A stretch of 64,000 nucleotides of DNA from a virus (IMGVR_UViG_3300020411_004289:42088-106087), one strand, 5' to 3'. Numbered from the stretch's first letter, positions 21,316-43,865 are shown. A program made the numbers and translations. The notes: generated by a model from the letters alone, not told the origin.

Positions 21316-22029
21316 ATGGGATTTTTAGACCATTCAACAAATAATATAATAATCGACGCAGTCCTGACAGATACAGGGCGAAAAATGTTAGCTGATAACA
21401 GAGGAAGATTTAAAATCGCATTCTTTTCTCTTTCAGACGATGAAGTAGACTATCAAATCATTGAAAAGTTTGGTAGAGCTGTGGGTAAAGAAAAGATATC
21501 TAAAAACACACCTATCTTTGAAGCACAGACAAAAGCTAGTTTGGCATTGAAACACAGACTTCTTACTCTACCAGACCCAACTGTAATTAGGCTTCCTAGT
21601 TTGTCACTGTCATCGACTAACCTTTCTAGTAATTTGTTGACGTTTAATACGTCAACATCATCCACAAATACTGTAAGTGTAGAACAGGTAATTGAAGGCG
21701 AGACTATGATACCTGACGGTGTTTCAGATACGACATTTACAATTTTGGTACCAGATAGATTTCTATCTGTGCAAGGAAGATCAGAAATATCAGTTGAATC
21801 AACTACAAGAATTGCATCTTATAGCATTACAAGATCTGATACTAATAGTAAAAACGGCGCAAAGGCAGATTTTACATTGATAATTCAGCCAGGCCTGGAC
21901 GATACGATGTTCAATATTTACGGTGATTCCGACAATAAAAACAATATTTCAAGTGTAGTATCGATTGTTGGTGATCAGTCGGGAATTAGAAAAGACTTTG
22001 CAATTGCGATAAGTCGCCCGGCAGCATAA
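21316..22029 (+). CDS. Baseplate/tail-collar-like structural protein
   Basis: DAVLTDTGRKMLA...FSLSDDEVDY resembles the N-terminal part of tail-collar-fibre (DUF3751-like) domains. Paralog of 12013. Confidence 0.5.
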   Translation: MGFLDHSTNNIIIDAVLTDTGRKMLADNRGRFKIAFFSLSDDEVDYQIIEKFGRAVGKEKISKNTPIFEAQTKASLALKHRLLTLPDPTVIRLPSLSLSSTNLSSNLLTFNTSTSSTNTVSVEQVIEGETMIPDGVSDTTFTILVPDRFLSVQGRSEISVESTTRIASYSITRSDTNSKNGAKADFTLIIQPGLDDTMFNIYGDSDNKNNISSVVSIVGDQSGIRKDFAIAISRPAA

Positions 22030-36534: not shown

Positions 36535-36963
36535 ATGGCAAAGATAACGAGAGCAACTTTAAAAGGCATAGTCAAAGAATGTTTAGTAGAATTACTAGCA
36601 GAAGGCCTGGATTCTTCTCCTGAGCGCACTCAGATTTCAGAAAGCAAAAGAAAAGAAAAAAGAAAGCAAGCACTCTTAAAAGAAGAGGCAAGGTTAGCTG
36701 CAAATAGAAAAAAATTGGAAAATCGAGTGACTGATACTGTCGCGACAGTAACAGATGATCCTATAATGCAGAGCATTCTTTCACACACAGCAACAACAAC
36801 ACTGCAGGAGCAGCTAAATAATGAACCAGCTTCAAATGCGGGAAATATGAATTTTTCTGATATTAGTTCAGATGCTGCTGGCATTAATCTAGATTCAATA
36901 TTTAGTTCGCCACAAGAGAATTGGTCGGCTTTAGCATTTGCGGACAAGAAAACAGGCCAGTAA
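36535..36963 (+). CDS. Putative internal head / prohead core protein
   Basis: N-terminal KITRATLKGIVKECLVELLAE helix and several (I/L)-x-E sites. Confidence 0.5.
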   Translation: MAKITRATLKGIVKECLVELLAEGLDSSPERTQISESKRKEKRKQALLKEEARLAANRKKLENRVTDTVATVTDDPIMQSILSHTATTTLQEQLNNEPASNAGNMNFSDISSDAAGINLDSIFSSPQENWSALAFADKKTGQ

Positions 36964-37014: not shown

Positions 37015-37299
37015 ATGTCAAGACGAGTCAAAAAAATGACACCTAACATGCTTAAGAGAATGATTGTACAAGAAGCAAGAAAGCTTCGAATGGAAGTTTT
37101 GGAAACAGGCGAAGAAAGTTCTGAAAAAGTTGCTGACAAGGCACCTGAAGTTGACGCCGATGAATATGCTGACTCAATTGAGCAGGATATTGATTGGATG
37201 AAGGCACTAAAGATTCATGAACGACGCCTCGCAAGAAAACTACAGGAAGTACGATCTGCTAAGCGTCGCATCGGTCGTCGTTTATCTAAAAAGATATAG
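37015..37299 (+). CDS. Putative internal head protein with basic C-terminus
   Basis: 94 aa. KMTPNMLKRMIVQEARKL...VLE, an acidic middle and an Arg/Lys-rich end. Confidence 0.55.
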   Translation: MSRRVKKMTPNMLKRMIVQEARKLRMEVLETGEESSEKVADKAPEVDADEYADSIEQDIDWMKALKIHERRLARKLQEVRSAKRRIGRRLSKKI

Positions 37300-40644: not shown

Positions 40645-42549
40645 ATGTCTAAGTCATTTTCATTGAACCAGCTGACCGAAGGTATTCGCCAGAGAAATCT
40701 GGGAGGCCAGAACAAGCAGTTGGTAGAGAAGTGGTCCCGAACAGGACTTCTTCGTGGTTTGAACGGTGTTCACCGTGAGAACATGGCACGTCTCCTGGAA
40801 AACCAGGCAGGCCAGGTTCTTAAGGAGGCATCTTCAGTTTCAACCGGTGGCGGAAACCTGGCATCGTCAGGCGACCTTCGCGGTTTTACTAATATTGCTT
40901 TCCCAATCGTTCGCCGAGTTTTCGGTGGATTGATTGCAAACGAGCTTGTATCGATCCAGCCGATGAGCCTTCCTTCCGGACTGCTCTTCTACTTGGATTA
41001 CACATACGGATCACAGGTGGGTGGAGTAAATGATTCACGTCCATACACCACCGGATCATCAATTTATAATGCACCTACTGGTAAGGGTGTACGCTCTGGT
41101 TCACTAGCAGTTGGCGGTCAGTATGACCTAGCTGGTACGGGCTATACACGTGTACACGACTCAGTTGCATTCACTGCAACCTCACAGCTACTTCTTTCTG
41201 GTGCGGTTCGTGGAACGAACAACGCAATGACAGCCGGTTCGGTCGCTGAAGCAACAGGATCTGATGGTAAACTTCTACAGTTCGACCCACAGATTGCAGG
41301 CGCGATTGAAGGGAATACAACCCCGGGTGGCAACGCCGGCCCTGGAGTTTACTCTTTTGTTGTTATCGAGACTGACTCTCTTACTAACATCGACAAGACG
41401 ATGATTAAGGAAGTTGCTCTTGTTCCAGACGTAGCAGGAACTCTTCCTTCTGGATTGGCCGTTATCGGAGACGATACCAATGGAAACAAGATCCAGGATG
41501 GAGACAACCTTCTTAACGTGCGACGCCTTAACAGACTAGGTACTGTTTCAGGTAACTCATGGACGTCAGCTCCGCTTGCAGACATCAGCGATGCCAATAC
41601 AGGAATTCTGATGGTTGTTTCAGGTGCAATCGAAGGCTCGACTGCTGAAGTAGCGAAATTAACAGTTTCGTTCCCAGTAGAGGCTAGCCTCAACAGTGGA
41701 ACTGGAGATACTCTTGTAATTCCGGCTTTCGAATCGGATTTTGCAACGTCACCATCGCCGAATATTCCAGAAATCGACATCAAGATCGAGGCCATTGCGG
41801 TCGTAGCCAATACTCGTAAGCTACGTGCCAAGTGGTCACCAGAACTCGCTCAGGATCTTAACGCTTATCACAGCTTGGACGCTGAGGTGGAGCTCACACA
41901 GATCCTCTCCGAGCAGATTGCTCTAGAGATTGACCGCGAGATTCTTAACGATCTTCTCATGCAGGGTAACGCTGCTAACTACTTCTGGTCACGTGCACCT
42001 GGTAAGTTCGTCAACAAGGAGACGGGATCTGAGGTTCTAGCTTCGGGTACCAACGCTCCTGGACCTGCTTTCCGTGGAACAGTTCGTGAGTGGTATGAGA
42101 CTCTTGTTGAGACTTGCATCGATGTGGGTAACCAGATCCATCGCAAGACGCTGAGAGGATCAGCTAACTTCGTCGTGGTAGGACCTGACGTTGCTACGAT
42201 TCTTGAAGCTTCAGTCTTCTACAAGCCTTCCTACACTCTCGATGGTGATGGACAGGTTGGCGCTCCGATGGTTATCGGTGCCGAGAAGGTTGGAACTCTC
42301 AGCAACCGCTTTACGGTTTACAAGGATCCTTACTTCCCAAGAAATAAGGTTCTTGTTGGCTACAAGGGCGGAAGCTACCTTGAGACAGGATACGTCTACG
42401 CACCTTACGTGCCGCTGATCGTAACACCTACTATCTTCGCTCCTGAGGACTTCACCCCGAGAAAGGGTGTCATGACTCGCTACGGAAAGAAGATGGTTCG
42501 TTCCGACTTCTACGGTACAGTTACATGCTTGGACATGAACGTCATCTAA
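40645..42549 (+). CDS. gp23: Major capsid protein (T4 gp23-like)
   Basis: LVEKW, ARLLENQ, FPIVRRV, SIQPMSLPSGLLFYL, TRKLRAKWSPELAQDL, EIDREI, YAPYVPL, FTPRKGVMTRYG. Predicted maturation site VLKE61|A. SD AAGGAG. Confidence 0.95.
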   Translation: MSKSFSLNQLTEGIRQRNLGGQNKQLVEKWSRTGLLRGLNGVHRENMARLLENQAGQVLKEASSVSTGGGNLASSGDLRGFTNIAFPIVRRVFGGLIANELVSIQPMSLPSGLLFYLDYTYGSQVGGVNDSRPYTTGSSIYNAPTGKGVRSGSLAVGGQYDLAGTGYTRVHDSVAFTATSQLLLSGAVRGTNNAMTAGSVAEATGSDGKLLQFDPQIAGAIEGNTTPGGNAGPGVYSFVVIETDSLTNIDKTMIKEVALVPDVAGTLPSGLAVIGDDTNGNKIQDGDNLLNVRRLNRLGTVSGNSWTSAPLADISDANTGILMVVSGAIEGSTAEVAKLTVSFPVEASLNSGTGDTLVIPAFESDFATSPSPNIPEIDIKIEAIAVVANTRKLRAKWSPELAQDLNAYHSLDAEVELTQILSEQIALEIDREILNDLLMQGNAANYFWSRAPGKFVNKETGSEVLASGTNAPGPAFRGTVREWYETLVETCIDVGNQIHRKTLRGSANFVVVGPDVATILEASVFYKPSYTLDGDGQVGAPMVIGAEKVGTLSNRFTVYKDPYFPRNKVLVGYKGGSYLETGYVYAPYVPLIVTPTIFAPEDFTPRKGVMTRYGKKMVRSDFYGTVTCLDMNVI

Positions 42550-42580: not shown

Positions 42581-42613
42581 AAGGCGCCTTGGATTTTCCA
42601 AGGCGCCTTTTTT
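42581..42613 (+). terminator. Rho-independent terminator after the MCP
   Basis: 13-bp perfect stem AAGGCGCCTTGGA-TTT-TCCAAGGCGCCTT followed by a T tract. Confidence 0.9.
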
Positions 42614-42763
42614 ATTTTCAAATAACTTTTTTTTGTGTCTTTGAATCAATCTGTGTATTCATCTGTGGACTTGTGCATACATCTTTAAGGGATTGCCTAA
42701 GCAAACAACTTAAATGCTTTAGAAGTTATGTAGATAATCTCTTCGATTATATACTTGTGAGAC

Positions 42764-42770
42764 ATATTTA
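42764..42770 (+). promoter_or_regulatory. Putative late promoter motif (GAC-ATATTTA)
   Basis: Follows the MCP terminator. Lies 6 nt before ATG 42777, with no SD. Confidence 0.6.
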
Positions 42771-42776
42771 TAGATC

Positions 42777-43328
42777 ATGAGTAATAGAAGTTCCCGAGAA
42801 AGTATGACTAGACTCAAAGCTTTAGTTAATGAACTAAGCGATCGAGATGTGCAGCTCAAAAAAGATTTTGAGTTATTCGAAGAGTTTTTTGAAAACTTTC
42901 CAATTCCTGTTACCATGTGGTCAATCACAAAGGAAAAGACGGTTTTATCTCAAAGAGGGAATGGTTTTGCATGTCACAAGGCCAAAGACCTAGAATCCTT
43001 GTTTTTGTGCCCTACAGTTAAGTCTCTCTCCATGGAAAACCATGAAAAAGCTCTTATGGGTGAAAAAGTAGACTACTTCATCAAAACAGATAAAAATGTA
43101 TACTTTGCGAAACTAGTCCCAAGGCTAGATGATAAGGGCGAGATATCAGGAGTATCGGGAATTGCGTGGGATGTAACAAGCAATGCAATCATGTTGGCAT
43201 GTATTGAAAGCATTCATGAATCTACAGTTGGACGAAGAGGTCAGTATAAAGAAATCCATCAGGCTGCAGATAAAGCTCTAGAAGCAAGTCGTCTCCGACG
43301 ATTGCTTGATGAGCACGGAGAAGACTAA
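42777..43328 (+). CDS. Stand-alone PAS/PAC domain protein
   Basis: LFEEFFENFPIPVTMW (PAS entry), HEKALMGE, and FAKLVPRLDDKGEISGVSGIAWDVT (classic PAC ending in DVT). Flanked by helices, with no output domain. Confidence 0.75.
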   Translation: MSNRSSRESMTRLKALVNELSDRDVQLKKDFELFEEFFENFPIPVTMWSITKEKTVLSQRGNGFACHKAKDLESLFLCPTVKSLSMENHEKALMGEKVDYFIKTDKNVYFAKLVPRLDDKGEISGVSGIAWDVTSNAIMLACIESIHESTVGRRGQYKEIHQAADKALEASRLRRLLDEHGED

Positions 43329-43657
43329 TGTCAAATGATGGCCAAAATGGCTGGAATGAATATTCTAGGTTGGTTCTCAAAGAGCTAGAGTCACTCAACG
43401 ACAGCATTGAAGGACTCAAGTCAGAGCTTCAAGATGTTAAGCAAGAATTAACAAAGCTTCAAGCTAAAGAAGACAAAGTTGATGAACTGCGGCAATGGAA
43501 AGAAAGAATAGATGATGTTGCTTCACCAACACAAATGCGCGACTTAATAGTTAGTGTAGAAGAGCTTAAAGTTTTTAAAACAAAAGCAATTACGATCTTT
43601 GCAGTTGTTCAATTTGGAATGGCTGCGGCGATGTGGTTGATGAAAATAATGGAGTAA
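43328..43657 (+). CDS. Coiled-coil protein with a single C-terminal transmembrane helix (holin/XhlA-like topology)
   Basis: Heptads LESLNDSIEGLKSELQDVKQELTKL. Hydrophobic tail AITIFAVVQFGMAAAMWLM. TAATG-coupled to the PAS gene. Confidence 0.6.
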   Translation: MSNDGQNGWNEYSRLVLKELESLNDSIEGLKSELQDVKQELTKLQAKEDKVDELRQWKERIDDVASPTQMRDLIVSVEELKVFKTKAITIFAVVQFGMAAAMWLMKIME

Positions 43658-43661
43658 AAAA

Positions 43662-43865
43662 ATGCCAGAAGAAAAAAAGACAACAACAAAAAAGACAACT
43701 AAGACATCTGCAGCAAAAAAAGCCACGCCGAAGTCAACTAAGACAGCTGCTTCTGCTCCTAAGGCTGCAGCACCGGCGCAACCACCTGCTGCTGAGGCAG
43801 TGCCTGTGGCAAAAGCACCGGCCCCTGCTAAAGAAACTCGAGTGCGCAGCCGACGCCGATCTTAG
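43662..43865 (+). CDS. Lys/Ala/Pro-rich basic protein (histone H1-tail-like)
   Basis: SD GGAG. KKTTTKKTTKTSAAKKATPKS...KAPAPAK...RVRSRRRS. Confidence 0.6.
   Translation: MPEEKKTTTKKTTKTSAAKKATPKSTKTAASAPKAAAPAQPPAAEAVPVAKAPAPAKETRVRSRRRS

Follow-up and report, generated by a model that had tools for sequence, protein, structure and literature searches.

Genomic setting of the PAS-TM109 unit

The stretch of DNA analysed here (64,000 nucleotides, hereafter the window) comes from an uncultured marine T4-like phage and represents its late structural region. It belongs to a 106-kb fragment that constitutes the full record and is rated 21% complete; the record of one relative, rated complete, spans 284 kb. 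Between its capsid and neck genes lie two open reading frames (ORFs) encoding a PAS protein and a small membrane protein of 109 amino acids (aa), here called TM109. The features of the region are listed below.

31099: large terminase gene
32743: portal gene
35524: prohead protease gene, followed by small head proteins
39015: gene for an acidic scaffold-like protein
40645-42549: gp23-type major capsid gene (Pfam Gp23, E 4e-74), upstream of the PAS-TM109 unit
42581..42618, + strand: intrinsic terminator after the major capsid gene, marking the 5' border of the unit
42764..42770, + strand: ATATTTA, a promoter-like late motif whose end is 6 nt from the ATG at 42777
42777..43328, + strand: PAS protein gene (ORF, 183 aa)
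42804..42896, + strand: N-terminal helices of the PAS protein, residues ~10-40, with the motif L-K-x-L-V-x-E-L-S-D-R-D
42897..43178, + strand: PAS core, residues 41-134 (range from VIA-align)
43179..43313, + strand: C-terminal helices of the PAS protein, residues 135-179, with a conserved S-R-L-R motif
43328..43657, + strand: TM109 gene (ORF, 109 aa)
43343..43396, + strand: invariant N-terminal motif of TM109, Q-N-G-W-N-E-Y-S-x-L-V-L-x-E-L-E-x-L
43586..43642, + strand: predicted membrane helix of TM109, residues 87-105 (Kyte-Doolittle)
43662..43865, + strand: basic ORF (67 aa, Lys/Thr/Ala/Pro-rich, pI 11.2), 4 nt 3' of TM109
43930: head-tail adaptor-like gene (phrog_211, E 2.5e-12), downstream of the unit

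The gp23-type gene on one side and the adaptor-like gene on the other place the unit between capsid and neck genes, as the original prediction had stated, and further neck genes and two sheath genes follow 3' of the adaptor-like gene. The proposed coupling of the two ORFs also stands: both exist, and the stop codon of the PAS gene and the start codon of TM109 overlap within TAATG. Some gene callers choose an alternative start for the PAS gene at Met10 (42804). The 67-aa basic, low-complexity ORF is probably the third gene of the unit; it resembles histone H1 in composition, and ORFs of similar composition (50-142 aa) occupy the same slot at loci L001, L002, L003, L010, L016, L020 and L030 and are missing at many others.

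This capsid-neck slot seems to accept variable cargo. In Microcystis phage Mel-JY01 the slot between capsid and head-completion genes (L047:7700-9107) holds two membrane proteins and PhoH, and in Flavobacterium phage immuto the equivalent slot holds four other genes, PhoH among them. A 200-aa membrane protein encoded after the Mel-JY01 capsid gene looked PAS-like by eye and was rejected at an hhalign probability of 0.15.

DNA nearly identical to the region is present in marine metagenomes from about a dozen studies. Searches of cultured phages by blastn and tblastn with the region, both proteins and two remote family members returned no match, although the low-complexity filter may hide coiled coils in such searches. 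The bacterial genome collection gave only three matches, every one on MAG contigs; these are probably phage DNA and hence do not allow a host to be called. In the literature library searched, no paper describes a pair of PAS and membrane proteins in phage structural regions.

Terminator, promoter-like motif and transcripts

A terminator had been proposed ahead of the unit, and a strong hairpin with a 13-bp stem (8 G-C pairs), a 3-nt loop and a T-run was indeed found at 42581-42609. Comparable hairpins lie 3' of the capsid gene in relatives L008, L025, L028, L029 and L036. The case for a late motif of the unit's own is mixed: ATATTTA is present at 42764-42770, but it differs from the T4 consensus. 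A T4-type late promoter would place TATAAATA on the coding strand some 10 nt ahead of the start of transcription; no such copy was found for the unit, and the sole copy near it is on the minus strand.

The number of ATATTTA copies in the window is not above chance (10 found vs. 15.6 expected), but of the seven on the plus strand, five closely precede a start codon. The motif also occurs 16-29 nt before the starts at 21316, 30722, 43930 and 53388. At L001, L002, L007, L013, L014 and L021, either ATAGTTA, ATAATTA or ATATTTA is found 5-7 nt before the PAS start. Whereas other late genes of the window combine the motif 16-29 nt upstream with a GGAG-type site, the PAS gene, in the window as at these six loci, starts without a Shine-Dalgarno sequence. 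ATA(N)TTA would be the lineage's own promoter-like element, with its function as a promoter inferred, and a promoter serving the PAS-TM109 unit alone is plausible. Because the element ends 5-7 nt before the start and a Shine-Dalgarno sequence is absent, the mRNA of the unit may be leaderless or nearly so.

RNA contigs from two marine metatranscriptomes match the capsid gene (40645-42549) almost exactly, and the phage or a near twin was therefore active in those samples. These contigs cover the capsid gene to 42439 and 42492 and do not include the PAS-TM109 unit, whereas DNA runs read straight through the capsid gene into the unit. At most, this hints weakly at capsid transcripts ending close to the terminator, and the RNA contigs say nothing on expression of the unit.

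A PAS protein without an output domain

The AlphaFold model of the PAS protein, built with 48 homologues, has a pLDDT of 84.7 and a pTM of 0.74. Helices at residues 3-40 precede a five-stranded PAS core (41-134), which is followed by helices at 134-179, and the model contains no further domain. A Foldseek search of the model against the PDB gave 54 matches at E<=1e-3; among the matches listed the top ones are PAS domains, the best with an E value of 3.5e-6. When those PDB matches were aligned with VIA-align, 246 chains reached Z>=8, the best with Z 11.4 and an rmsd of 2.2-3.0 over residues 41-134, and the PAS domains of SrrB, TodS and ThkA aligned at Z 10.6-11.4 with an rmsd of 2.1-3.0. The PAS fold assumed in the original prediction is therefore upheld by the model (pLDDT ~85) and by PAS-type structural matches with Z up to 11.4. 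By sequence the fold is far less apparent: PAS_4 of Pfam scores 14.9 bits, below its cut-off of 23.1, and the profile of the family found chance matches only among solved structures. In the ESM Atlas, the closest clusters consist of short phage and Bacteroidota proteins (168-196 aa) that comprise a PAS domain alone.

The absence of a kinase, cyclase or DNA-binding output, also claimed beforehand, was confirmed in that hmmscan found no other Pfam domain in the protein and the model accounts for all 183 aa. The C-terminal region is confidently modelled (pLDDT 83-96), with DSSP helices at 134-150, 156-170 and 172-179; S171 is invariant there, and R172 and L173 are kept in at least 90% of sequences. 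The 94 homologues are 100-321 aa long and all of phage type. Close cellular relatives were not found, nor were longer fused forms among the relatives, the latter being weak evidence. One 293-aa protein on a single ENA contig (P0013) was considered as a natural PAS-TM109 fusion and rejected, as its frameshifted read-through destroys the conserved C-terminal PAS helix; the fusion is probably an assembly error.

Invariant residues of the PAS core are F41, P42, P44, V45, W48, F76, H89, P115, G128 and W131. The Cys/His residues that had drawn attention in the motifs FACHK, LCP and NHE are all present, but they are unequally conserved: H89 never varies and C78 is retained by 90% or more of the sequences, whereas C66 and H67 are not conserved. 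H89 sits on the long helix 79-93 of the model, and on the strength of conservation H89 and C78 are candidate pocket residues of the PAS domain.

A phage-encoded PAS sensor that has been studied is the VqmA receptor of phage VP882 (PMC8284805). Both proteins have a PAS fold with flanking helices, and VqmA structures are among the structural matches of the PAS protein. However, VqmA bears a DNA-binding domain and acts in the lysis-lysogeny decision, whereas the PAS protein has no such output, comes paired with a membrane protein and is encoded among late structural genes of a T4-like phage.

TM109 is a conserved tail-anchored protein

TM109 has one hydrophobic stretch at residues 87-105, with a 19-residue Kyte-Doolittle mean of 1.89, and four residues follow it. 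The remainder gave only weak coiled-coil-type Pfam matches (residues 9-79), and the tail-anchored coiled-coil topology originally proposed for the protein agrees with both observations. In the N-terminal motif, Q6-S13, L15-L17, L20, E21 and L23 are invariant columns, and remote subfamilies retain the motif as GW.E.S.LVLKELERL. The family also keeps a W-K...S-P-x-Q segment. Within the membrane helix, the inner half (I-T-x-F-x-V-V-Q), which has a conserved polar Gln and small residues, is conserved family-wide, whereas the outer half is variable.

Searches with TM109 gave 2027 matches at 90% clustering, and a profile of the protein found 521 clusters at 50% identity (E<=1e-3). Pfam and PHROG scans of 31 family members found no recurring family and only scattered coiled-coil noise. 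The profile matched nothing in T4, Flavobacterium phage immuto or Microcystis phage Mel-JY01.

Co-conservation of the pair in the lineage of the window

Among 45 related IMG/VR loci, the PAS and TM109 genes are adjacent in all 44 that reach far enough, with -26 to +4 nt separating the PAS stop from the TM109 start in every case. Wherever DNA of the lineage reaches, the genes follow one fixed order: capsid, PAS, TM109, adaptor and two neck genes. This neighbourhood comparison bears out the expectation that the two genes are conserved together. Median identity across the lineage is 66% for TM109 vs. 69% for the capsid protein, and conservation of the PAS protein equals that of the scaffold (51%). 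The PAS-TM109 genes are a real, conserved late cassette with two products.

The wider TM109 family and its partners

In about 66 of 117 loci from remote TM109 subfamilies the TM109 gene belongs to a head operon with the order terminase, portal, (g274), H75, TM109, d147, prohead protease, scaffold and capsid, where H75 is a helix-only partner of 58-76 aa and g274 and d147 are unknown proteins of 274 and 147 aa. At L136, TM109 family genes lie among small head-protein-like genes. Other contexts are more scattered: the cassette stands alone between opposite-strand genes at L139, beside the DNA polymerase at L146 and after the tail-tube gene at L056. This variety of genomic contexts fits a self-contained function.

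A profile of the window-type PAS protein matched none of the 117 remote loci, and a helix-only partner was found directly upstream of the TM109-family gene in 73 loci. Elsewhere a canonical PAS_3 protein of 141-174 aa is the neighbour, directly upstream in L139-142 and L148-149 and directly downstream in L056-L065; three that were tested (E 5e-22, 3.5e-11 and 1.8e-15) have scores well above the Pfam cut-off. Counting both gene orders, canonical PAS_3 proteins adjoin TM109 in no fewer than three further lineages. A profile of these neighbours matches the PAS ORF alone in the 106-kb record (E 9.5e-4), and jackhmmer started from them reaches 13 window-type PAS proteins. Every partner, whether short or PAS-bearing, begins with the helix motif L-K-x-L-T/V-x-x-L, and hhalign of the H75 family against the N-terminus of the window-type PAS family gave an E value of 5.4e-5 and a probability of 67%. 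From these sequence comparisons we conclude that the conserved unit is TM109 plus a partner helix, with the PAS domain an optional add-on fused in several lineages, that of the window included. A functional pairing of PAS protein and TM109 is likewise well supported by comparison of the loci, and the idea of a two-gene system gained strength from PAS_3 proteins of another subfamily that also adjoin TM109 genes in at least three lineages. What is new here is how broad the TM109 family is, that it usually resides in the head operon, that some partners consist of the helix alone and share their motif with all the others, and that PAS partners from a second subfamily occur both upstream and downstream of TM109.

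The conserved 147-aa protein d147 (L071:6384-6824 and 63 other loci) is encoded 3' of TM109 in head operons of the main clade. Its model has a pLDDT of 89 and found no match in Foldseek, and d147 showed no similarity to PAS profiles. VIA-align matched it best to class I type III secretion chaperones, at Z 6.0-7.5, which is a lead only.

A possible role in lysis timing

As the most probable function of the cassette we propose a lysis-timing switch, which we favour over a head-assembly anchor; the proposal is tentative, with a probability of roughly 40%. TM109 would be an inner-membrane protein anchored by its single C-terminal helix, with about 85 conserved coiled-coil residues in the cytoplasm. 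Its partner would be a cytoplasmic protein whose N-terminal helix, L-K-x-L-V/T-x-x-L, is common to all partners and is fused to a PAS domain in the phage of the window. The partner helix (residues ~10-40) may bind the N-terminal coiled coil of TM109, either holding or releasing it, and the PAS domain could tie this step to a ligand or to the redox state of the infected cell. TM109 would then form holes or assist a holin, while the partner would restrain it from the cytoplasm in the manner of an antiholin, by analogy with XhlA in PBSX or with T4 holin T and RIII. A more specific version, which we regard as rather unlikely, makes the PAS protein a ligand- or redox-sensing antiholin on a new tail-anchored hole-former, the long-missing holin of marine and freshwater T4-like phages, with the helix-only partners as its unregulated ancestors.

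Several observations are consistent with lysis timing. TM109 is a small single-pass membrane protein in a late unit, the named ESM Atlas cluster closest to it is viral XhlA, with a score of 0.92 and 170 features in common, and the 'holin' family phrog_689 weakly matches two of the 31 TM109-family members. At L133 and L138, the cassette is flanked on one side by the gene for a peptidoglycan-binding-domain protein of 549 aa and on the other by those for an exported trypsin-like lipoprotein and a membrane zinc protease. A holin of the T4 T type was found neither in the 106-kb record nor in four records of TM109-bearing phages, with T4 itself as positive control; two of the four, G001 (rated 100% complete) and G002, are relatives from the lineage of the window. 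The candidate endolysins of two relatives have no membrane protein alongside, and the holin of the lineage is therefore unassigned.

Other observations argue against it. The unit has no endolysin, spanin or second membrane protein, and the candidate endolysins of the relatives are 38 kb and 160 kb distant. The endolysin families PF00959, PF01510 and PF13539 were not found in the 106-kb record, which is uninformative given its rating of 21% complete. TM109 is as conserved as the capsid protein, which is unusual among holins, and its periplasmic tail of only about four residues lacks the charged C-terminal tail typical of holins. The position of the TM109 family in the head operon of the ~66 remote loci is at least as compatible with head assembly.

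XhlA of the Bacillus subtilis PBSX prophage (PF10779) is a small membrane protein needed together with the holin XhlB and the amidase XlyA. TM109 has the architecture of this type (a coiled coil plus a C-terminal membrane helix in ~80-110 aa) and is like XhlA in its similar size, its N-terminal cytoplasmic coiled coil, its one C-terminal membrane helix and its late expression. The comparison with XhlA-like single-TM holins thus holds for size and topology but not for sequence or setting. The PF10779 model did not match TM109 at E<=0.1 in hmmscan or at E<=10 in a six-frame search of the record, nor any of the 31 family members at E<=0.01, and no holin, endolysin or amidase gene neighbours the TM109 gene. 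TM109 further differs in its own motifs, N-G-W-x-E-Y-S and S-P-x-Q, and in its dedicated helical or PAS partner.

In T4 lysis inhibition, the holin T is controlled by the antiholins RI, which is periplasmic, and RIII, a small cytoplasmic helical protein. The logic of T and RIII is the one proposed here: a small helical protein binds the cytoplasmic part of a late single-pass membrane protein and so makes the time of lysis depend on a signal. However, holin T has a large periplasmic domain and TM109 almost none, and the sensor of T4 lysis inhibition is periplasmic, whereas a PAS sensor in the phage of the window would be cytoplasmic.

The PAS domain is missing from most lineages, and the idea of signal gating therefore applies only to PAS-bearing ones. 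The signal-gated switch of the original prediction is thus kept for those lineages, but most others have the membrane protein in the head operon without a PAS domain.

Alternative roles of the cassette

A serious alternative, though less likely than lysis timing, is that TM109 tethers a portal-initiated prohead to the inner membrane, with the helical or PAS partner as adaptor or regulator. T4 proheads start on the inner membrane at the membrane-bound portal (gp20), together with gp40 and host membrane factors (PMC9958956), and this gp40-dependent beginning on a portal is a precedent for such a tether. Most lineages encode TM109 beside the portal gene, and the ~66 remote loci with the cassette in the portal-to-protease stretch, the small head-protein-like neighbours at L136, the position of the window's cassette between head and neck genes and a conservation of TM109 equal to that of core structural genes all point in the same direction. 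However, the cassette also occurs far from head genes (L139, L146, L056, L133). T4 gp40 (114 aa), which is acidic, beta-rich and without a membrane helix or coiled coil, is unlike TM109; gp40, gp67 and gp68 showed no similarity to TM109, H75 or d147; and the TM109 family is absent from T4, immuto and Mel-JY01. Position is moreover weak evidence here, as the lysis genes of phages P2 and T7 are also embedded in structural operons.

It is improbable, in our estimation, that TM109 is a packaged membrane-active protein that a chaperone-like partner (PAS, H75 or d147) keeps soluble until it is loaded into the head and, at DNA ejection, inserted into the membrane of the next host. Such a route would suit the location of the TM109 family in the head operon of most lineages and the resemblance of d147 to class I type III secretion chaperones, binders of unfolded or hydrophobic cargo, although a Z score under 8 (6.0-7.5 here) may mean only a common fold arrangement, and d147 and H75 are absent from the genome record of the window phage. 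The small head proteins at 36535-36963 and 37015-37299 start with helices of the type K-I-T-x3-L-K-x-I-V-K-E, which the M-T-R-L-K-A-L-V-N-E of the PAS protein resembles. The partner helix may on this likeness serve in capsid targeting, but it is two residues shorter, and its spacing is unlike that of the head-protein tags.

We see a similarly small chance for another membrane role, e.g., superinfection exclusion or host membrane energetics with the PAS protein as sensor. A mobile two-gene cassette of a single-pass membrane protein and a cytoplasmic partner would be in keeping with such a role, as would the accessory cargo, such as PhoH, that the capsid-neck slot carries in related phages. However, accessory functions are seldom retained over 521 clusters with the conservation of core genes, and late expression is the wrong time for superinfection exclusion. 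Very improbable, finally, is the suggestion made at the outset that the PAS protein poisons host PAS kinases through mixed dimers and adjoins TM109 through gene packing: a stand-alone PAS domain with flanking helices of the dimerisation type would be suitable, but no close cellular relatives or longer fused forms were found, the 94 homologues are short and phage-type, the partner lacks a PAS domain in most lineages, and the strict coupling to TM109 together with the recurrent PAS-TM109 adjacency in either order argues for a shared function.

Significance and observations at remote loci

T4-like phages of ocean and lakes are among the most abundant viruses, and we know of no holin for their marine and lake lineages, nor of an established site of head assembly. 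The TM109 cassette represents a large unnamed family (521 clusters) without a consistent Pfam or PHROG match. If the preferred reading as a lysis-timing switch is true, it would show how, in natural populations, host physiology determines the time of the burst by way of a sensor domain acquired in some lineages; if head anchoring is true, TM109 would be the first phage protein dedicated to tethering a portal to the membrane. Under either reading, PAS-TM109 is a small, testable two-protein system.

Some remote loci display further features of the genes around the cassette. At L133:4111-7794, the helix partner and TM109 lie among a PG_binding_1 protein (549 aa), a trypsin-like lipoprotein and a membrane-anchored, matrixin-like zinc protease, possibly a protease-based envelope or lysis cluster. 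A glutamine-synthetase-like gene (L054:6718-7851; Gln-synt_C, E 9e-18) is inserted between TM109 and d147 in a head operon. The portal gene product at L071:1605-4907 is 1101 aa long and contains an HNH-endonuclease-like segment (~233-363) before the portal domain, which may be an intein or a mobile insertion.
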